A DNA stretch of 10,141 nucleotides, taken from IMG/VR virus record IMGVR_UViG_2693429748_000016; one strand, written 5' to 3'. This document shows positions 998 to 10,141 of this stretch, piece by piece. The position numbers and the translations under genes are program-made. Source of the DNA: a virus (lineage: Duplodnaviria > Heunggongvirae > Uroviricota > Caudoviricetes). Every line of letters starts with the position of its first letter. Within the stretch, counting starts at the first letter, position 1. The notes under the pieces were generated by a model. That model ran no database searches. It saw only the letters and a program-made list of their open reading frames with translations, and was not told the origin of the DNA.

Positions 998-1288
998 TTA
1001 ACTGTTTTTGCCTGGATACTGTCTTCGAGAATGCACAATATTTACTACTTCTATGCTTGATGCTGTTACTCGGTAAAGGATGATGTAGTTAGGATGAGTT
1101 ACAATTTCACGAAGACCAAGAACTCGCTCGCTTGGAGGATACAGGTAAGGATGCTCTGTGAGCGGCAAAACGGATGTTTCAATTCGAATTTTCATTCTGC
1201 GTGCTGCCGCGGGATTTTCTTTAGCTATGTAGGCTACGATCTGGCGCAAATCATCACGAGCAGATGGTAGCCATAAAACGGGTAACAT
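998..1288 (-). CDS. parE: ParE-family type II toxin (RelE/ParE superfamily), 96 aa
   Basis: Size and sequence are typical of ParE toxins (N-terminal MLPVLWLPSARDDL, C-terminal PNYIILYRV...VVNIVHSRRQYP). Start overlaps the stop of the upstream antitoxin gene (ATGA at 1288). From memory it resembles ParE2 of the E. coli paaR2-paaA2-parE2 module; not verified by alignment. Confidence 0.85.
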   Translation of the reverse strand: MLPVLWLPSARDDLRQIVAYIAKENPAAARRMKIRIETSVLPLTEHPYLYPPSERVLGLREIVTHPNYIILYRVTASSIEVVNIVHSRRQYPGKNS

Positions 1289-1482
1289 TATTCACCTCTG
1301 TGAGTTGCAGCAGCAATTTGGGCAATAATTTGTTCCATTTCCGCCATTACCTCATCATGCGGAATCGCCGGGCGGGGATCCGCGAGGCTTGCTGCTACTT
1401 TGGCCCGCAGCCATTCGTTGTAACTATTTTCTTGCTCAACTGTCTCAAATTCTGAAACCATTGGGGAAAGGACTGTACTCAT
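1288..1482 (-). CDS. paaA: small antitoxin, PaaA-like (64 aa), partner of ParE
   Basis: 64-aa acidic protein immediately upstream of and overlapping parE. GGAG lies 10 nt upstream of the ATG at 1482. Motif SPMVSEFETVEQENSYNEWLRAKVAASLADPRPAIPHDEV matches my recollection of PaaA2-type antitoxins. Gene context (regulator-antitoxin-ParE) supports the call. Confidence 0.75.
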   Translation of the reverse strand: MSTVLSPMVSEFETVEQENSYNEWLRAKVAASLADPRPAIPHDEVMAEMEQIIAQIAAATHRGE

Positions 1483-1501: not shown

Positions 1502-2002
1502 TTAGGCGCGACGGCCTTTTTGTGCAGCTAACCACCGCGCAACCGTACGATCCATTGATTCTTTTTTATCTTTCATCTCCTGAAGCATGTGTTCTTGATC
1601 TTCTTTCGGAAAAGCTCTGAACGTATGGATTAAATCTCGTTCCATCGGCTCTACGGCAAACGGTAGTTCATCCTCTGTTTGTTCTGTGTCTGCTGGTAAT
1701 GCGACTATGTTATCTTGCTGTGGTTCTCGACAATACATCCTTGCAATTTGCAGCAAATCTACCATGTCTGGCCTGATTGACTCAGGGGGAACTTTCAGTA
1801 AGCCAGCAAACTTTAGAACAGCCTCAAGGTTTAGTGGGGTTTGACCATTTAGGTAGTGACTTACCGCCCCTTGTGTTGAAAACCCCATAATTTCCGCCGC
1901 ACGTTCCTGAGTCAATCCCAACTGAGATTTCTTTGCCATCCAGATTTCTTTCAGTCTTCTGGCGGCGTTGAGGTCGGTGTCTGACAATGATTTTCTTTTC
2001 AT
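1502..2002 (-). CDS. CI-like HTH (XRE-family) repressor, PaaR-like; likely prophage immunity repressor
   Basis: ORF track 1502..2032 begins at a GTG; the first ATG (MKRKSLSDTDL..., at 2002) is the more plausible start. N-terminal HTH segment LTQERAAEIMGFSTQGAVSHYLNG. Transcribed divergently from the Cro-like gene across an operator-bearing intergenic region. First gene of the repressor-paaA-parE operon. No Ser/Lys S24 peptidase motif recognised in the C-terminal half. Confidence 0.75.
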   Translation of the reverse strand: MKRKSLSDTDLNAARRLKEIWMAKKSQLGLTQERAAEIMGFSTQGAVSHYLNGQTPLNLEAVLKFAGLLKVPPESIRPDMVDLLQIARMYCREPQQDNIVALPADTEQTEDELPFAVEPMERDLIHTFRAFPKEDQEHMLQEMKDKKESMDRTVARWLAAQKGRRA

Positions 2003-2037
2003 ACATCCAATTCTAATAAGATTGCTAATCACTTTGA

Positions 2038-2079
2038 AATAGCATCACTATTTACTTTTAAAAATAACAGTGCTATTAA
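2038..2079. promoter_or_regulatory. OR-like operator pair overlapping a candidate rightward early promoter
   Basis: AATAGCATCACTATT at 2038-2052 and ATAACAGTGCTAT at 2064-2076, same motif family as 901-941, centres about 25 bp apart. Candidate promoter TTTACT (2051-2056), 17-nt spacer, TATTAA (2074-2079), which would start transcription just upstream of the Cro-like gene. Confidence 0.45.
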
Positions 2080-2113
2080 TTATGCATTGGTAACACATCA
2101 CATAGGGCGGATT

Positions 2114-2377
2114 ATGAATCTTGGAGAATATTTGCATCATTTTCATATAACCCAGAGTTCATTTGCTGAGATTGTTGGCGCATCCCAAGGGATGGTCAGC
2201 CACGTTATAACGGGGCGTGCAAAACTTACAGGAGAAAAAATATTACGTTGGTGTGAAGCAACGGGATGGGTGGTGACCCCACATGAGATTGACAGTAAAA
2301 CCTACCCCAACCCAACTGACGGCTTGCCTGCTGAGTTTCAGGCTAACACACAACCATCGGCGGGGGTTGATTCATGA
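2114..2377 (+). CDS. Cro/YdaS-like HTH DNA-binding protein (87 aa from ATG 2114; 96 aa if started at 2087)
   Basis: HTH-like segment QSSFAEIVGASQGMVSHVITGRAKLTGEKILRW. First gene of the rightward operon, divergent from the repressor. Stop overlaps the next gene's start (ATGA at 2374-2377). Start choice between 2087 and 2114 is unresolved. Confidence 0.65.
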   Translation: MNLGEYLHHFHITQSSFAEIVGASQGMVSHVITGRAKLTGEKILRWCEATGWVVTPHEIDSKTYPNPTDGLPAEFQANTQPSAGVDS

Positions 2378-2799
2378 AAATCAAGCATGAACACATCCGC
2401 ATGGCGATGAAAGCCTGGGCGCATCCGGACGGTGAAAAAGTTCCGGCAGCTGAAATAACCAGGGTTTATTTCGAACTGGGAATGACGTTTCCGGTTCTGC
2501 ATAACGACAGCAAGCACAACACGCTTTATCTCAACACCCAAAAGATTTTCCGTTGGCTGGATAAAGACACCCCTGACGCTGTTGAAAAAATTCAGGCGTT
2601 GTTACCTGCGATCGAAAGGGCAATGCCACCTCCGCTGGTGGCTCGAATGCGCAGCCACAGTTCAGCTTATTTTCGGGAACTGGTGGAGACGCATGAACGA
2701 CTGGTGAGAGACGCTGATGATTTTGTCGCAGTGGCAATCGCCGGTTTCAATCAGATGAACCGTGGTGGCCCGGCAGGAAATGCTGTGGCAGTACATTGA
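2374..2799 (+). CDS. YdaT-like protein (141 aa), second gene of the rightward early operon
   Basis: Begins MKIKHEHIRMAMKAW. Position and size match the second gene of Rac-type ydaS-ydaT pairs. Family assignment is from gene order and recollection, not alignment. Confidence 0.6.
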   Translation: MKIKHEHIRMAMKAWAHPDGEKVPAAEITRVYFELGMTFPVLHNDSKHNTLYLNTQKIFRWLDKDTPDAVEKIQALLPAIERAMPPPLVARMRSHSSAYFRELVETHERLVRDADDFVAVAIAGFNQMNRGGPAGNAVAVH

Positions 2800-2870
2800 C
2801 TGACAATAGCCATATCGAATCGCTCCCGGCAACTCGTGAGTAAAAAGATTCGGTATCAGAAGAGGTGAGT

Positions 2871-3935
2871 ATGGCTAACGCCTGGCTCAGATTATGGCAT
2901 GACATGCCAAATGACCCTAAGTGGCGAACAATTGCCAGGGTGTCAGGGCAGCCAATTGCAACAGTGATGGCAGTGTATATCCACCTCCTGGTGAGCGCGT
3001 CACGAAATGTCACGCGAGGTCACATTGATGTCACGACAGAAGATTTGGCAAGTGCGCTCGACGTGACAGAAGAGGTAATTGATTCAATTTTGCAGACGAT
3101 GCAGGGGCGGGTACTTGATGGTGATTTAATCACTGGATGGGAAAAACGCCAGGTGCTTAAAGAGGACAACGGCAATATTTCGCAAACCGCAAAATCTCCT
3201 GCAGAGCGCAAGAGGGCGCAGCGAGAGAGGGAAAGAAAGCGGGAACAAAATGGCGATTGTCACGGCGCGTCACGAAATGTCACGCACATGTCACGACGAG
3301 TCACGACAGATACAGATAAAGATACAGATAAAGAAGATCAAAACACTATGGTCCATGGCGTAAAAAACGCCACGAACCAGGCAGGGGATGTTCAGACCGT
3401 CAATCCTGGTCAGCCAGCAGGCTCGACACCGGAAGCCGATTCAGCGTATGCGCTGAAAGCCGATTCGGGCGCTGTGCAGCAGGTGATGACCGCAAGGCCG
3501 GAGCAATCACTCCAACTGCAGCAGCCTGAAGCCGATTCCGCCATTCAGCGGGAAGCCGATCGGGTAGCCCCGGAAAACACCGGGCAGCCTGTGGGACGAG
3601 TGGATTATCCGGATGTGTTCGAACAGGTCTGGCGGGAATACCCGTTGCGTGCCGGGGCAAACCCGAAGAAATCCGCATTCAGTGCCTGGAAGGCCAGATT
3701 GCGCGAGGGGGTGCCACCAGAGACCATGCTGGATGGTGTGAGGCGTTACGCGAGATACCTGGCGGCGACCGGGAAAGCGGGAACGGAATTTGTTCAGCGA
3801 GCGACGACGTTTTTTGGGCCGGACCGGAATTTTGAAAACCCCTGGTTGCTCCCGGTAAGCGGCACGAACAACCAGCGTTGTGTGAATCATATTTCTGAAC
3901 CGGATACCGAAATTCCGCCGGGATTCAGGGGGTGA
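2871..3935 (+). CDS. phage replication initiator / replisome organiser (O-like, YdaU-like), about 354 aa
   Basis: ATG at 2871 with GAGG 5 nt upstream (ORF track begins at GTG 2865). C-terminal region (YPDVFEQVWREYPLRAGANPKKSAFSAWKARL...FENPW) resembles the conserved C-terminal domain of phage replication proteins. Lies immediately upstream of a DnaC-like loader. Carries internal iteron arrays. Confidence 0.85.
   Translation: MANAWLRLWHDMPNDPKWRTIARVSGQPIATVMAVYIHLLVSASRNVTRGHIDVTTEDLASALDVTEEVIDSILQTMQGRVLDGDLITGWEKRQVLKEDNGNISQTAKSPAERKRAQRERERKREQNGDCHGASRNVTHMSRRVTTDTDKDTDKEDQNTMVHGVKNATNQAGDVQTVNPGQPAGSTPEADSAYALKADSGAVQQVMTARPEQSLQLQQPEADSAIQREADRVAPENTGQPVGRVDYPDVFEQVWREYPLRAGANPKKSAFSAWKARLREGVPPETMLDGVRRYARYLAATGKAGTEFVQRATTFFGPDRNFENPWLLPVSGTNNQRCVNHISEPDTEIPPGFRG
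2995..3040. repeat. iteron block 1 (putative origin element) inside the replication gene
   Basis: TCACG copies at 3000, 3010 and 3031 (roughly 10-11 bp phasing). The 21-mer GCGCGTCACGAAATGTCACGC (2995-3015) recurs exactly at 3265-3285. Confidence 0.55.
3259..3334. repeat. iteron block 2 plus tandem 12-mer (putative origin core) inside the replication gene
   Basis: TCACG copies at 3260, 3270, 3280, 3291 and 3301 (spacing 10, 10, 11, 10 bp), followed by TACAGATAAAGA x2 (3311-3334) and an A-rich stretch. Resembles the lambda arrangement of an origin embedded in the O gene. Confidence 0.55.
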
Positions 3936-3941
3936 TGTGGC

Positions 3942-4688
3942 ATGAAAAACATTGCGGCAGCCGGGGTTCTTGAACGTATTCACAGACTTGCACCACAGGG
4001 GGCGGTTCCACCGTACCGGACGGTGGAGGAGTGGCGGGAATGGCAACTTGCTGAAGGACGAAAACGCAGCGAGGAGATTAACCGCCAGAATCGCCAGTTG
4101 CGGGTGGAAAAAATCCTGAATCGTTCGGGCATCCAGCCTCTGCACAGCAAATGCTCGTTTGCGAATTATCAGGTGCAGAACGACGGGCAAAAATACGCGC
4201 TGAGCCAGGCCAAATCCATAGCTGACGAACTGATGACCGGGTGCACGAATTTTGTGTTCAGCGGTAAAACCGGCACCGGGAAAAATCACCTTGCAGCGGC
4301 GATGGGTAACCGGCTGATGGCGAAGGGGCGCAGCGTGATTATCGTCACCGAGTCTGATGTCATGAGCGTGTTGCATGACAGCTACGACAACGGCAAATCC
4401 GGTGAAAAATTTTTACAGGAGCTTTGCGGGGTTGATTTGCTGGTCCTGGATGAAATAGGCATTCAGCGGGAGACGAAAAACGAGCAGGTGGTATTGCACC
4501 AGATAATTGATCGCCGGACAGCATCACTGTGCAGTGTCGGGATGTTAACAAACCTGAATCATGCCGCAATGAGCACGCTTCTTGGTGAGAGGATTATGGA
4601 CCGCATGACCATGAACGGTTGTCGGTGGGTGACGTTTAACTGGGATAGCTGGCGTTCAAATGTCAGCTTTCCGGGAGTTGTGAAGTAA
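3942..4688 (+). CDS. DnaC-like replicative helicase loader (AAA+ ATPase), 248 aa
   Basis: Walker A GKTGTGKNHLAAAMG, Walker B LLVLDEIG, and C-terminal LLGERIMDRM...WVTFNWDSWR closely paralleling E. coli DnaC. Starts 7 nt after the replication gene stop. Confidence 0.92.
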   Translation: MKNIAAAGVLERIHRLAPQGAVPPYRTVEEWREWQLAEGRKRSEEINRQNRQLRVEKILNRSGIQPLHSKCSFANYQVQNDGQKYALSQAKSIADELMTGCTNFVFSGKTGTGKNHLAAAMGNRLMAKGRSVIIVTESDVMSVLHDSYDNGKSGEKFLQELCGVDLLVLDEIGIQRETKNEQVVLHQIIDRRTASLCSVGMLTNLNHAAMSTLLGERIMDRMTMNGCRWVTFNWDSWRSNVSFPGVVK

Positions 4689-4706
4689 TTTTTGTTGGAG
4701 GATGTT

Positions 4707-5435
4707 TTAATGGAAACTGTATTTGACGCACTGAAAGCACTGAAAAGAGCCTCTTCACATGTGGTGGCGTCCCGCCTTGGAATCAGCCGTGAAGATGCGG
4801 TCAACGAACTGTGGAAACTGAAGCGCCGTGGTGAAGCGGATAACAAGGGTTCGATGTGGTGGCTGATTCAGGCTGGTGAAAGTGAACCAGTGTCACCGGT
4901 ACCGAAAGTGACAGCGCAAATGCTGACTGAGGCGATTGAACAACATGGCCCACAAACGGCGGATGAGCTGGCACTGATGTTCGGGATTACCTCCCGCCGG
5001 GCGAATTCATCGCTGGCCATGGCAATCAGCAAAGGGCGTCTGATTCGCGTGAATCAGGGCGGTAAATTTCGGTACTGCATACCGGGCGCTGATTTACCGG
5101 CAGAGCCGAAAGCCGCATCCATAGCGGAAACGGATGGTAAAGTCTTTCCTCAGCCAGCAGGTGTTGCGTTACCGGTACAGGAAGCTGCAACACAGGAAGA
5201 AATTAAAACAGAAACTGTGGCGGACATTGTGCAGTCGTTGCCATCGTTCACCGAAACGCAAGCGGATGACCTGGTTTTACCATCGCTGCATATGGCAAAC
5301 CGCGAACTGCGTCGGGCGAAAAGTCATGTCCAGAAGTGGGAGCGTGTCTGCGCCGCGTTGCGGGAGCTGAACAAGCACCGGGATATTGTTCGACAGATTG
5401 TCGATTCCTCCGGTCGTATTGTGTCGGAAAAGTGA
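4707..5435 (+). CDS. hypothetical phage protein (about 243 aa)
   Basis: ORF track 4692..5435 begins at a TTG; the ATG at 4707 has GGAGGA 6 nt upstream. Follows the DnaC-like gene in the same operon. No catalytic motif recognised. Confidence 0.6.
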
Positions 5436-5450
5436 TTGCCGGGGGCGCTT

Positions 5451-5816
5451 ATGGCAAAAGTATTTACACAGGAAGAGCGGGAAAAAATTAAGGGGCAGGT
5501 TGTTGAACTCGTACGCCAGAGTGGGCGCGAGACGTTACGACAACTGGAAGCTAAAACCGGGGCGACAAGATATTTAATAAGCGTTCTCGCCAGAGAGCTG
5601 GTTGCCAGTGGGGATGTATACAACTCTGGCTACGGGTTATTCCCGTCTGAACAGGCTCGTAAGGACTGGCAAAACGCCCGCAAAAAACTCTCGAGGGCAA
5701 AGCTGAAGAAACCATCTGTGGTTGATCCGGACCTTATCTGGTCATTACCAGACGGAGAAATACGCCGCTACGAAGTACCGGCTTTCTATCAGGGTGATTT
5801 TCAGGAACCGTTCTGA
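5451..5816 (+). CDS. hypothetical phage protein (about 121 aa); 3' end fused to an IS-derived segment
   Basis: ATG at 5451 (ORF track begins at TTG 5436). A diverged second copy of most of this gene lies at 5930-6319. The last codons (..QEPF stop) fall within the sequence attributed to the IS remnant. Confidence 0.55.
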   Translation: MAKVFTQEEREKIKGQVVELVRQSGRETLRQLEAKTGATRYLISVLARELVASGDVYNSGYGLFPSEQARKDWQNARKKLSRAKLKKPSVVDPDLIWSLPDGEIRRYEVPAFYQGDFQEPF

Positions 5817-5929
5817 CAGCTTCGGCTTTGAACTCTTTAGAGTAACGTTGGGTTTTTCTGCTCATTATTAGCTCCTTCTGATGCCATTCTATTTCAGGAA
5901 GGAGTGTCCGTTAAACTCAGGCTACCTCA
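5806..5929 (-). mobile_element. remnant of an IS3-family insertion sequence (left end plus first ~20 codons of orfA), IS600-like
   Basis: The minus strand reads TGAGGTAGCC... from 5929 (typical IS3-family terminus), then AAGGAGCTAATA-ATG and MSRKTQRYSKEFKAEAVRTV (ATG at 5865). I recall this as the IS600-type OrfA N-terminus; unverified. The element breaks off after about 20 codons. Confidence 0.5.
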
Positions 5930-6319
5930 AAAATTAAAGGGCAGGTTGTTGAACTTGTACGTCTGAGCGGTCGCGAGACGTTGCGGCAACTGGAAGCCAA
6001 GACAGGTGCGACAAGATATCTGATGAGTGTTCTCGCCAGAGAGCTGGTTGCCAGTGGCGATGTATACAACTCTGGTTACGGGTTATTCCCGTCTGAACAG
6101 GCGCGTAAGGACTGGCAAAACGCCCGCAAAAAACTCTCAAGGGCAAATCTGAAGAAACCATCTGTGGTTGATCCTGACCTTATCTGGTCATTACCAGACG
6201 GAGAAATACGCCGCTACGACAGGCGTCAAAACATAATCTGTAGCGAGTGCCGGAAGAGTGAAGTTATGCAGCGTGTACCGGCTTTCTATCAGGGTGATTT
6301 TCAGGAGGCGGTACTGTGA
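5930..6319 (+). pseudogene. N-terminally truncated, diverged second copy of the 5451..5816 gene
   Basis: 5930-6230 aligns with 5483-5790 at roughly 93% identity by eye. Homology begins exactly at the IS terminus, so the copy lacks about the first 10 codons and its start. ORF track 5981..6319 starts at an internal ATG. Carries an extra 56-bp segment near the 3' end relative to copy A. Confidence 0.5.
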
Positions 6320-6440
6320 GTGAAATTAGCTATCAAATAATCTGTCGCGAGTGCCGGAAGAGCGAAGCTATGCAGCGTGTACTGGCTTTCTATCAGGGTA
6401 ATTTTCAGGAGGCGATACTGTGAATGAAATTAGCTATCAG
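6233..6440. repeat. 104-bp tandem direct repeat (2 units, about 92% identical)
   Basis: Unit 1 is 6233-6336 and unit 2 is 6337-6440, with 8 mismatches out of 104. Each unit contains the gene 3' end (..CxECRKSExMQRVxAFYQGxFQEAxL), a TGA stop, and an abutting start codon (GTG in unit 1, ATG in unit 2). Confidence 0.75.
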
Positions 6441-6837
6441 GCTTCAATTACCGCTGGCATTCGCATCAAAGGAGAGGAGCATGGAAATAAAACCAGAAGA
6501 TGAGTTAAGCAATATTGTTTTATTTCCGGTAAAAGAGGATAACCCTCGTAATCAGGTTAATTTTCTTTATGAGCCATCGGAAAGACCATATTGCCATCAC
6601 GCTTCTGTCCGGGTTGACGAAAAAGAGCGTCAGGTCCGCTGTAAAATTTGCGGTGCAGTTGTGGAGCCATTTGACTGGATGCTCTCTGTGGCGAAAAGAG
6701 AAACCAGACTGGCAGATGATGTAAGGCTCTTGCGCCAGGAGGAGCGGGAAAGGCGAAAAAATATAGAAAAGCTAATCCAGATTGAGCGTAATGCGAAAGC
6801 GCGGATACGCAGGGTGACAAAATATAGCCCCGAATAA
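6424..6837 (+). CDS. hypothetical protein with Cys/His cluster (zinc-ribbon-like) and basic coiled-coil tail
   Basis: ORF track 6424..6837. ATG 6424 directly abuts the TGA of the preceding repeat unit (TGAATG); the alternative ATG at 6481 has AGGAG 6 nt upstream. Contains CHH...CKIC and a C-terminal charged, heptad-like segment. Confidence 0.55.
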   Translation: MKLAIRLQLPLAFASKERSMEIKPEDELSNIVLFPVKEDNPRNQVNFLYEPSERPYCHHASVRVDEKERQVRCKICGAVVEPFDWMLSVAKRETRLADDVRLLRQEERERRKNIEKLIQIERNAKARIRRVTKYSPE

Positions 6838-7051
6838 TCAAGGTTATTTCTGGAAGTCAAGTCGTGAGTGATGAGGACTAACAAATACGGTGAACTCGAT
6901 AAAGAGATTCAGGACGAACTGGAGGCCAGGAATGATTGACAAATCACCAAGTGAGTTCAGCTACAAAGATTTATTGTCATAACGGGTTATGAGATCGACT
7001 TGGTGCGTGATATTCTTCGGGCCAGTTTGCTATGCGCCACCATGAGATGTT

Positions 7052-8884
7052 ATGGCCCGCATGTTTGATACATTAGGATTTTACATTATGAATGTGCAAC
7101 ATTTTGATTTTTTTACAGATAATGAGTTTTCTAATCTGGAAAGATATCAAACTTGTAAAGCCATGGCCAAAGGTTATGCGGGCAATTACAAAACCGGGCA
7201 GTCAAGGTTGATGCATGCCCGCTCATACTGCTTCAGCATCGTAGCTGCATATTGGGATACCCTTGCAAAAAAGCAAAAAAGCAGCATTAAAATGAGGGCA
7301 GTACCGCACACTGTTTACATAGAAGACATTCCATGTGATGCACGCGAGCTCGCTGAACGAACAGGTGAGCTTATTGCTCAATTTCCGGCGGAGGACGCTG
7401 GATATCTGATTGGGTCAATTTATACGGTAATGCTGCCATCCGCTTACCGTTCGGAATTGGGGGCTTACTATACCCCCCCACCTTTGGTAGCGCGTCTCTT
7501 GGACCTGGCTGAAAAGTCTGGTGTTGATTTTTCTCATGCATCGGTTATTGATCCTGCGTGTGGTGGCGGTGCATTTTTGGCACCAGTAGCCATTCGAATG
7601 TTAAAAAAAGACAAGGGGTCTTCCCCTGAATGGATGTTGAGGAGAATCAGTCGTCGTTTAAAGGGGATAGAAATCGATCCATTTGCGGCTTGGATGAGTT
7701 TGGTATTGCTCGAATCTGTACTAATGCCACTATGTGTAAAGGTAAAACGTAGATTGCCTGAAGATACAATTATTGTTGCTGATGCGCTTCAGCAAGATAA
7801 ATTTTCTGGTTATGATCTTGTGGTAGGGAATCCGCCTTACGGACGTGTCACTCTCGATATTAAAACGAGAGAAAAATATTCTCGTTCGTTATTTGGTCAT
7901 GCAAATCTATATGGATTGTTCACCGACTTAGCTGTTCGCATGGTTAAAGAGAAAACAGGAGTTATTGCATTTCTTACGCCAACTTCTTTTCTTGGTGGGC
8001 AGTATTTCACCGCGCTGCGAACCCTTTTGACCGAAAAAACTACTCCGTATGCCCTTGATTTCGTCACTGACAGGGATGGGGTCTTTGACGATGTTCTCCA
8101 GGAAACAATGTTGACAGCATTCAAGGCGGGAGAACATAAAGTTCGGGCCCAGGTATCCTCACTTGTCCCTAAGGGGTTGAACAAAGCAAAAATTGAGAAA
8201 ATAGGTAATGTTGATATAGAAAAAGGTGGAGCAACGTGGCTTTTGCCACGCGTTAAAGATGATGCCTGTTTTCTTAATGTATTAAAACAGATGTCTACGC
8301 GTTTAGCTGATCTGGGATACTCAGTCTCTACAGGTCAGTTAGTCTGGAATCGATTTAAGTCGCAGTTGCGTACGACGAAAGGAAAAAATAGCTACCCATT
8401 AGTCTGGGCGGAATCAATAACTTCAGCTGGTTTTCGTTTTAGTGCAGACAGAAAAAATCATGTTCCCTATATCGATATAACCCCACAACAGGGTTTCCTT
8501 GTGACAAAATCTGAATGTGTGCTTGTTCAGCGGACAACATCGAAGGAACAGGACAGAAGGATTTTAGCGGCAATTTTACCTCAGGGATTTATAGATGAAA
8601 CTGGTGGCGTAGTAGTTGAAAACCATATTAATATTGTATATTCAAACGGATTGTTCTCTGCGGTTCGCCCTGATGTTATTGATATGCTACTTAATTCGCA
8701 TGTTGTCGATCGGGCGTTCAGGTGTATAAGCGGAAGTGTTGCTGTTTCGGCCTATGAATTGAATTCAATCCCGTTGCCTTCTCTGGAGCAGGTGATGGAG
8801 ATTCAATCGTTAATTGATGCTGGCGTCCACAGACGGATTATTGAGAGAACTATCGCTGGTTTCTATGGAGTGATGATTGCATGA
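7052..8884 (+). CDS. gamma-class N6-adenine DNA methyltransferase (Eco57I/TaqI-like), 610 aa
   Basis: Motifs in gamma-class order: YYTPPPLV (about 7466-7489), SAM-binding VIDPACGGGAFL (about 7544-7579), catalytic VVGNPPYG (about 7819-7842), with a long C-terminal region consistent with a target-recognition domain. Alternative starts at 7061 and 7088. Visibly lower GC than the phage replication genes. Confidence 0.88.
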   Translation: MARMFDTLGFYIMNVQHFDFFTDNEFSNLERYQTCKAMAKGYAGNYKTGQSRLMHARSYCFSIVAAYWDTLAKKQKSSIKMRAVPHTVYIEDIPCDARELAERTGELIAQFPAEDAGYLIGSIYTVMLPSAYRSELGAYYTPPPLVARLLDLAEKSGVDFSHASVIDPACGGGAFLAPVAIRMLKKDKGSSPEWMLRRISRRLKGIEIDPFAAWMSLVLLESVLMPLCVKVKRRLPEDTIIVADALQQDKFSGYDLVVGNPPYGRVTLDIKTREKYSRSLFGHANLYGLFTDLAVRMVKEKTGVIAFLTPTSFLGGQYFTALRTLLTEKTTPYALDFVTDRDGVFDDVLQETMLTAFKAGEHKVRAQVSSLVPKGLNKAKIEKIGNVDIEKGGATWLLPRVKDDACFLNVLKQMSTRLADLGYSVSTGQLVWNRFKSQLRTTKGKNSYPLVWAESITSAGFRFSADRKNHVPYIDITPQQGFLVTKSECVLVQRTTSKEQDRRILAAILPQGFIDETGGVVVENHINIVYSNGLFSAVRPDVIDMLLNSHVVDRAFRCISGSVAVSAYELNSIPLPSLEQVMEIQSLIDAGVHRRIIERTIAGFYGVMIA

Positions 8885-9963
8885 ATCTGCCTGTTGTTCC
8901 CCCATTGAATGTTATCCGGGAAAGATTACAATTAATTTTCCCTGAAGGGACTGAGAATCGTGGATATTTAATTCGGGAAATAGCTGCAAAAACAATTTTT
9001 GTCATGTTTTATGCTGGTGCGGTTGAGGGGCTGGGGCGATGGATAAGGCCCAGCCAGGTTGTAAGTATGGGAGATTCGCAGGCTGCTCTTACTGATGATG
9101 CGTCCAGAGAAAGCTGGGTAAAGATGACTTTCTCTAAACAAAAGATAAGGCCTGCTGATGCATGGTATGCGGAAAATACGCGTGAGCCAATACGTGATGA
9201 AACTATAAAAAATGGCCTAATACCTTGCAATGCAATTGTTGAGCGTAAAGGTATACCCACCACATCCTCTCGTCCTCGTTACAGTTTGAATCGCTCTTTT
9301 GCAGCACTCTTTGATGCCGGGCTTGAAGGAGATTCGCTGCTGAGTGCAATAAGTTCCTGGCAAGAAAATCATTTGAACAAAGCCGCTCTTGCTAGGTTGC
9401 GTTTATTGAAATCAGGGGCAGTGATTGCTGCTGATGCCGTAGTCGTCACTTTCCCAAATGGAGAGAAGAGAACTTTAGCTCCGGGCCCGTCAAGTACAAT
9501 AGCTAAGGCCGTCATCGAAGTTTTTGCTCCTAATTTTCTTAAGAATCCAACTGTGCTCTGGTTGTCTGAATCCGGGAATAAAGTTGTTGCTCAGGATGAT
9601 GTATTGGCAAAAGCATTGGGGCTGAATATTGATGCCTCAAAAGCACTTCCAGATATTATTTTGATTGATTTGGGAGAGGACCGAACGGGTTCGGACATGC
9701 TTGTAGTTTTCACTGAAGTAGTTGCGACAGATGGGCCTATAAACAGGGAACGAAAAGTTACTCTCACTCATTTGGCTATTGACGCTGGGTTCAGCGAGAA
9801 AAATCTTGCATTCCTTACGGCATTTATGGACAGAAGTGCTCTGCCTTTTAAAAAGGCAATACCAGAATTGGCGTGGGGATCTTATGCATGGTTTGCTTCT
9901 GAACCGGAGCACTTAATTGATCTTCGGGATGGTTATCCGGTAAAGATCAGCCAGAGAAAATGA
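8881..9963 (+). CDS. putative type II restriction endonuclease (possibly BsuBI/PstI family), 360 aa
   Basis: Start overlaps the methyltransferase stop (ATGA at 8881-8884), with GGAG upstream. Same AT-rich composition. Size and M-then-R gene order match BsuBI-type systems as I remember them. No nuclease motif confidently identified by eye. Confidence 0.6.
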   Translation: MNLPVVPPLNVIRERLQLIFPEGTENRGYLIREIAAKTIFVMFYAGAVEGLGRWIRPSQVVSMGDSQAALTDDASRESWVKMTFSKQKIRPADAWYAENTREPIRDETIKNGLIPCNAIVERKGIPTTSSRPRYSLNRSFAALFDAGLEGDSLLSAISSWQENHLNKAALARLRLLKSGAVIAADAVVVTFPNGEKRTLAPGPSSTIAKAVIEVFAPNFLKNPTVLWLSESGNKVVAQDDVLAKALGLNIDASKALPDIILIDLGEDRTGSDMLVVFTEVVATDGPINRERKVTLTHLAIDAGFSEKNLAFLTAFMDRSALPFKKAIPELAWGSYAWFASEPEHLIDLRDGYPVKISQRK

Positions 9964-10003
9964 CCAAAGTTTGATATCCGCCACGCCCTGAAGGATGGGG
10001 GTT

Positions 10004-10138
10004 TTACGGTGCACTGGATAAAAAATCGGTTTCATAGATTTGCCCACCGTGGTATACGCCTGCGATAAAAACTTTATTGTCATCAACGGCAAAAGCAATA
10101 ATTGTTCTGTGGCGGGGTGATGCTGCCAACTTACTGAT
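10004..10138 (-). pseudogene. possible remnant of a RelE/ParE-like toxin gene (C-terminal fragment only)
   Basis: Minus-strand frame reads ..RTIIAFAVDDNKVFIAGVYHGGQIYE.. ending at TAA (10004-10006), a pattern reminiscent of RelE/ParE C-termini. The frame is closed by an in-frame TAA at 10139-10141 and has no ATG, so it is either a fragment, a frameshifted gene, or chance. Confidence 0.2.
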
Positions 10139-10141
10139 TTA

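Follow-up and report, generated by a model that had tools for sequence, protein, structure and literature searches.

The prophage window and its relatives

The window (the whole stretch of DNA analysed here, 10,141 nucleotides long) is the early-right region of a decaying Rac-like lambdoid prophage. This prophage is almost base for base that of relatives probably from Shigella sonnei; the species of the twin chromosomes is the probable one judging by their protein names. The genes and gene pairs in the window are as follows:

998-1482, minus strand: ParE/PaaA2 toxin-antitoxin pair, adjoining the prophage repressor
1502-2032, minus strand: HTH repressor
2087-2377: Cro-like HTH protein
2374-2799: YdaT
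2865-3935: replisome organiser with iteron-like repeats
3942-4688: DnaC/IstB-like ATPase
4692-5435: DUF1627 protein
5451-6319: two DUF977 (LygF) copies
6481-6837, plus strand: small zinc-ribbon-like protein, 118 aa
7052-8884: N6-methyltransferase (N6_Mtase, Eco57I type), 610 aa
8881-9963: BsuBI/PstI-family endonuclease, 360 aa

Within the replisome-organiser gene, iteron-like GTCACG repeats (period 10) and ACAGAT repeats at 2999-3037 and 3258-3334 probably constitute the prophage replication origin. The restriction-modification pair (7052-9963) is shared at 99.7-99.8% with the probable S. sonnei relatives and with E. coli FDAARGOS_943; in some relatives (L092, L094) the methyltransferase is broken into two shorter ORFs. 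IS1 adjoins the restriction-modification genes in the nearest relatives. Instead of the toxin-antitoxin pair beside the repressor, L086-L089 and E. coli FDAARGOS_943 (L003/L099) have ParE/ParD 3' of the endonuclease. No Rfam family matches the window at gathering scores. In the literature LygF/DUF977 appears as a gene name in genome announcements for Salmonella and once, in passing, as a domain; no functional data were found.

The related loci used for comparison number 98 and comprise 80 LygF-encoding loci from IMG/VR, three annotated loci and 15 nearest relatives; relatives were drawn from 24 of 621 and 24 of 2,191 index blocks, a small part of the contigs on which the zinc-ribbon protein is encoded. 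The twins have the same gene order as the window, with one intact 140-aa lygF (DUF977), the zinc-ribbon gene directly after it and then the restriction-modification pair. Positions 1931-5773 of the window equal positions 1-3843 of L094 with 0 mismatches, and positions 6337-10141 differ from L097 (3857-7661) at six sites only (6363, 6368, 6383, 6400, 6415 and 6424). Across L085 and L090-L098 the flanks are 99.8-100% identical. An unscarred twin of near 100% identity allows each base of the rearranged segment to be traced to its source allele.

More distant relatives show how variable the 3' boundary of lygF is. Phage vB_EcoS-813R8 (L002) and E. coli FDAARGOS_943 (L003) carry one 140-aa lygF ending ...FQEAVL-TGA, followed by the zinc-ribbon gene, whose annotated start is the counterpart of ATG 6481. 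Many lygF alleles diverge just 3' of the stop codon, at AATTTTCAGGAGG. This is also the right edge of a 0.9-kb block of four small genes that lies between lygF and the zinc-ribbon gene in E. coli M16807 (L001, positions 3049-3471 and 3480-4360), where lygF is a pseudogene with an internal TAA; ATCC 25922 and ST131 strains have the L001 arrangement too.

The tandem repeat and the patchwork it belongs to

Tandem Repeats Finder reports a repeat at 6233-6439 with a period of 104, 2.0 copies, 93% matches and a score of 365, and a second repeat search returned the same pair of units. Direct comparison of the units (6233-6336 and 6337-6440) gives 96/104 identical bases, in agreement with the roughly 92% identity proposed in an earlier, sequence-only reading of this DNA. 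The eight mismatches (unit 1/unit 2) are at 6242/6346 (A/C), 6259/6363 (T/C), 6264/6368 (T/C), 6279/6383 (C/T), 6296/6400 (G/A), 6311/6415 (G/A), 6320/6424 (G/A) and 6336/6440 (A/G). As the repeat is both long and close, a chance origin is ruled out. It spans the 3' end of lygF and the 17-20 bases 3' of the lygF stop codon, and each unit contains, as the same reading had described, a CxxC-bearing DUF977/LygF tail, a TGA, an abutting GTG (6320) or ATG (6424) and then AAATTAGCTATCA. The stretch actually duplicated, lygF nt 337-439, measures 103 nt; a filler A at 6336 completes the unit.

The repeat is the right-hand part of a larger rearrangement. Compared with the twins, the window has lost 13 bp of lygF (nt 324-336) and has in their place a 563-bp patchwork (5774-6336). 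This begins with 32 nt of lygF, followed by 135 nt from an inverted IS600 end, then by lygF of a second allele truncated at its 5' end, and lastly by unit 1. With the alleles labelled R (resident, L094), X (ATCC 25922/L001 type) and Y (FDAARGOS_943/L003 type), the order of segments in the left part is R nt 1-323, A, R nt 379-410, IS600 inverted from nt 135 to 1, and X from nt 34 to about 350; the right part continues with R from about nt 360 to 439, A, R nt 337-362, Y from nt 363 to an end between 424 and 515, and R onwards. The individual features and joints (J1 to J7) are:

5451-5816, plus strand: lygF (DUF977) copy A, resident allele nt 1-323 and 379-410
5773/5775: J1, non-homologous joint of resident lygF nt 323, filler A (5774) and nt 379; string ATACGCCGCTACGAAGTACCGG
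5795-5806: J2, 11/12-nt microhomology between IS600 and lygF nt 399-410, GATTTTCA[G/A]GA; string GGTGATTTTCAGGAACCGTTC
5795-5929, minus strand: left-end remnant of IS600 (IS3 family), 135 nt, from the terminal inverted repeat to about codon 20 of orfA
5929/5930: J3, genuine IS600 terminus ...GGCTACCTCA abutting lygF nt 33/34; string GGCTACCTCAAAAATTAAAGGG
5930-6319, plus strand: lygF copy B, first 11 codons gone, X allele through 6242 and R from 6259
6233-6336, plus strand: repeat unit 1, the tail of copy B, with TGA 6317-6319 and GTG 6320
6243-6258: J4, X-to-R switch within 16 nt common to both alleles
6316-6423, plus strand: 35-aa ORF VSEISYQIICRECRKSEAMQRVLAFYQGNFQEAIL, from GTG 6316, overlapping the TGA
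6335/6337: J5, head-to-tail junction of lygF nt 439, filler A and nt 337; string AAATTAGCTATCAAATAATCTGT
6337-6440, plus strand: repeat unit 2, now intergenic, resident sequence with a third-allele patch
6363-6424, plus strand: Y-allele patch (FDAARGOS_943 type), at least 62 bp and at most 155 bp (6361-6515)
Bounding 6363-6424: J6 and J7, the edges of the 62-155 bp Y-type patch

Copy A is 100% identical to L077 and L094 over 5451-5773. It has lost 55 nt (lygF nt 324-378, the CxxC codons included) and gained one A, for a net loss of 54 nt. The sequence-only reading had 56 bp of the repeat unit missing from this copy; the deletion is real, with the size corrected to 55 nt, of which 42 lie inside the unit. 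After lygF nt 410 the copy is cut, IS600 sequence replaces its 3' end and the protein ends ...FQEPF*. Copy B is 99.7% identical to L001 over 5929-6232; it has the X base at 27/27 X-specific sites as far as 6242, and from 6259 on all R-specific sites are of the R type. Its start codon and first 11 codons were lost to the IS600 end, and it has no ATG, GTG or TTG before TTG 5981 and no Shine-Dalgarno sequence. Both copies match Pfam DUF977 (PF06163; gathering cut-off 22.1), copy A over profile positions 1-99 of 134 (E = 1.8e-18, 67.4 bits) and copy B over positions 11-134 (E = 2.5e-24, 86.3 bits); the intact LygF of L002, also above the cut-off, scores 102.3 bits. We infer that lygF has been left as two defective copies.

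The extra short ORF noted in the sequence-only reading exists, with a different start: GTG 6320 opens only six codons (VKLAIK*), and the 35-aa frame begins at GTG 6316. It matches DUF977 positions 107-134 and is the LygF tail over again, a C-terminal relic recreated by unit 2 and probably no gene. None of the products specific to the rearrangement (copy A taken as 121 aa or as 126 aa, copy B as 112 aa or as 98 aa, and the 35-aa ORF) has a record in an index of 153 billion genes.

The IS600 remnant is 98.6% identical over 141 nt to many annotated IS600 copies. Its terminus and the orfA N terminus (translation MSRKTQRYSKEFKAEAVRTVPEN) are recognizable in a base-by-base alignment to L084; no transposase is left. 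The only promoter-like site, on the minus strand of the IS600 end (5914-5886), points antisense into copy A and is a match to the consensus alone. No terminator or promoter is created by the repeat, the counts in the window being at shuffle level.

The joints fall into distinct types. J3 is a transposition joint in the donor copy, with the authentic IS600 terminus set against an A-run (lygF nt 32-37). J5 has no microhomology beyond an A. At both J1 and J5 an extra A is present that neither parent sequence supplies, and in no allele of the 98 loci is there an A at lygF nt 336, 378 or 440. The one-A filler common to the two joints hints at a single mechanism, perhaps a single event. Taken together, the patchwork has illegitimate joints at J1 and J5, a joint with microhomology at J2 and, at several further points, homeologous switches, and it draws on three lygF alleles and an IS600-disrupted copy.

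The same dissection accounts for the differences between the units. Unit 1 agrees with the resident allele of L075-L077 at 102/103 positions. The Y patch carries six of the eight differences, among them the change from GTG to ATG at 6424, and L003 matches the window perfectly over 6361-6515. Of the other two, one is the filler base at 6336 and one is position 6242, where the X-type sites of copy B end. Each of the seven internal differences already exists as a polymorphism among single-unit alleles. Among the 98 loci there is no single natural allele equal to unit 2; the closest differ at three sites (window 6337-6470).

Origin of the repeat and competing explanations

One unit is present in 98/98 related loci. 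Complete E. coli genomes covering 6150-6520 number 911, and all 40 matches listed span 266-267 bp in two pieces, which corresponds to one unit. Queried with 81 nt centred on J5, 5,426 E. coli genomes gave no match in a single piece, and exact matches to the 23-mer at this joint were absent from GTDB species representatives, IMG/VR and JGI metagenomes. The J1 string was not found in IMG/VR, nor the J2 string in IMG/VR or E. coli genomes. For the J3 string, which would mark the putative donor with IS600 at lygF nt 33/34, there were no matches in IMG/VR, JGI metagenomes or GTDB representatives and no single-piece match in E. coli genomes; with Shigella genomes outside these searches, this negative for the donor is a weak one. 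The unit does not behave as a contingency repeat of variable copy number, being single in all 98 loci and in all listed E. coli matches. It shows instead what is expected of an illegitimate-recombination scar: a new junction poor in homology, single-copy relatives with the same flanks and no recurrence across lineages.

We therefore read the 104-bp repeat as a non-functional rearrangement scar, apparently private to this sequence, with a probability of about 0.8; given the share of contigs sampled, rare sister isolates may carry it too. A recombination scar was one of two possibilities raised in the sequence-only reading, and it is the one borne out by the single unit in every one of the 98 loci and every listed E. 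coli match; that reading had also named uniformly single-unit relatives as the mark of a neutral one-off scar, and this is the state of all 98 loci. Nothing found here suggests a regulatory role for the repeat.

The scar is put together as follows. The inverted 135 nt and nt 34 to about 350 belong to a second lygF allele, presumably one with IS600 inserted at nt 33/34. The resident gene's own nt 379-410 are joined after nt 323 through an untemplated A. Resident-type sequence from about nt 360 to 439 follows the X allele through the homeologous switch at J4, and after a second untemplated A the resident gene resumes at nt 337; this re-start yields the head-to-tail repeat of nt 337-439. J4, J6 and J7 are all homeologous switches within short identical stretches between diverged lygF alleles. 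The donors, we infer, were other lambdoid prophage remnants in the same genome. It is the alleles they carry that set the units apart, and not the ageing of an old duplication.

The patchwork may have been built in several steps or in one serial template-switching event. That the whole 563-bp patchwork and the unit-2 patch arose in one replication-repair event, with a strand jumping among three paralogous prophage lygF copies, we regard as unlikely, though worth stating. In such an event the two jumps on the same template would each add an untemplated A, and the four between paralogues would be guided by homology. Classical NHEJ is not known from E. coli and Shigella, so two untemplated-A joints are no textbook outcome, a point against the scar reading.

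Rearrangements elsewhere involve the same genes. Chimeric proteins encoded on other E. coli/Shigella contigs include zinc-ribbon-LygF fusions in the opposite order (P0040, P0063) and a DUF1627-zinc-ribbon fusion (P0037). These are other private rearrangements among the same neighbouring genes; scars recur here, each as a singleton. A recombination hotspot in lygF nt 323-440 was considered and found to be without support, as the chimeric proteins elsewhere break at other positions.

Of the explanations that compete with a scar, a chimeric contig assembled from three paralogous lygF copies and IS600 of one genome survives best, and we consider it improbable. The window is about as long as the short draft-assembly contigs that usually carry this prophage (most index blocks are 5-10 kb), the switches at J4, J6 and J7 resemble assembler path errors between 92%-identical paralogues, and the arrangement is found nowhere else. 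However, the strings at J1, J2, J3 and J5 are new, with no more than 12 nt of homology; mis-threading of an assembly graph through shared k-mers cannot yield them, and they must be present in real reads. The structure is also coherent, with an intact IS terminus, an in-frame deletion in copy A and exactly collinear flanks.

An in-place tandem duplication by replication slippage that drifted to 92% identity by point mutation would explain the head-to-tail geometry, and seven of the eight differences are indeed transitions. Its probability is nevertheless very small. Six of the eight differences fall within 62 bp, and the next 3.7 kb are identical to L097; 7% drift in the unit against 0% in the flanks is not credible. 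Those six reproduce the L003 allele exactly and one more the L001 allele, all seven being standing polymorphisms, and the duplication occurs in no relative examined. Given the identity of the 3.7 kb to the right of the patch, the 7-8% divergence between units is an imported allele difference and not a measure of age.

We give equally little credence to a functional decoy, a duplicated stop/start junction that would tune translational coupling to the zinc-ribbon gene, as the sequence-only reading had suggested, or the expression of that gene. In its favour, GTG or ATG abuts the TGA in each unit, AGGAGG lies 11 nt upstream, and ATG 6424 is in frame with the downstream gene. The AGGAGG, however, consists of the codons for ...QEA... 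of LygF, and the arrangement is unique to this sequence. Nine homologues (51-92% identity), from E. coli, Klebsiella, Kluyvera, Salmonella, Yokenella, Serratia and Erwinia, were aligned to the 137-aa ORF that opens at 6424, and all start at M20, which is ATG 6481, 57 nt past 6424 and preceded by its own AAGGAG 6 nt upstream. Distant matches cover about 81-86% of the 137-aa query, and in Stx phages and one IMG/VR locus similarity to the gene begins only at about 6452, downstream of 6424. Unit 2 does run on in frame into the ORF at 6424-6837, as had been noted, with 6424-6480 as an upstream extension only. Since copy B has no start codon, upstream translation to couple to is unlikely, and ribosomes are unlikely to reach TGA 6317. 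The zinc-ribbon gene keeps its own ribosome-binding site and start and is probably unaffected; the extra 104 nt of 5' leader could conceivably affect it.

The protein itself is small and zinc-ribbon-like, and it is conserved in prophages throughout the Enterobacterales. Its homologues share four invariant residues, C57, H59, C73 and C76, and an equally invariant C-terminal motif, NIEKLIQIERNAKARIR; its match to the TFIIB zinc ribbon is weak and sub-threshold. It is called at 118 aa or 137 aa depending on the annotation (118 aa in L001-L003), and annotators should treat the 137-aa call as an over-extension.

Lastly, a diversity-generating retroelement with a TR/VR pair acting on the LygF C terminus would likewise place two units of about 100 nt with scattered substitutions at and just downstream of a gene's 3' end, but it is ruled out: none of the ORFs in the 10-kb window encodes a reverse transcriptase, the substitutions are mixed, run in both directions and are not limited to the adenines of one copy, the differences are inherited allele differences, and no Rfam match was obtained.

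Comparison with known systems

As a non-functional scar, the locus adds to the cases in which recombination between paralogous copies has scrambled the prophage remnants of IS-rich enterobacterial genomes, and it has little wider biological import. Parts of it resemble several known systems, from each of which it also departs.

At coupled gene junctions of the TGATG or ATGA type a stop codon is followed immediately by a possible start, with a purine-rich stretch upstream, and both units share this appearance. Unlike at such junctions, the downstream gene has its conserved start elsewhere than at the candidate codon, and the upstream frame has lost its own start.

IS-driven decay of prophages occurs in Shigella, and IS600 is an abundant IS3-family element. 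The window fits this pattern in that an IS600 end with an authentic terminus lies in lygF, the rest of the element having been deleted via an 11/12-nt microhomology. It differs in that J5 does not touch the IS; IS activity accounts for the donor copy and J2, not for the 104-bp duplication.

Replication-based serial template switching (FoSTeS/MMBIR) has been described mainly in eukaryotes. The similarity here lies in segments of 32, 135, about 320, about 78 and about 26 nt and a patch of 62-155 nt joined in series from paralogous templates, with microhomology or 1-nt fillers at the joints; the difference is that several separate steps fit the scar equally well. Were a single event responsible, the locus would be a bacterial counterpart of the complex rearrangements attributed to MMBIR/FoSTeS, caught unselected.

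A further parallel is offered by the mosaic joints that homeologous and illegitimate recombination forms in lambdoid phages and prophages (Martinsohn et al. 2008, PMC2327257; De Paepe et al. 2014, PMC3945230), in which, as here (at 8-12% divergence), alleles of the same gene are exchanged between different lambdoid prophages. Experiments in these studies showed that diverged sequences recombine efficiently in lambdoid phages, also with defective prophages. In both cases the switches fall in short identical stretches (16 nt at J4) and cluster at the end of a gene. Typical lambdoid mosaics are clean replacements that leave genes intact, whereas here the exchange is out of register, with partial duplicates, an IS fragment and two broken copies; and unlike the mosaics that typically survive, this one is an unpolished joint in a single sequence. 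Divergence between tandem units can evidently be imported by recombination and not only accumulated by mutation, so the percent identity of a repeat is a poor clock in mosaic phage DNA.
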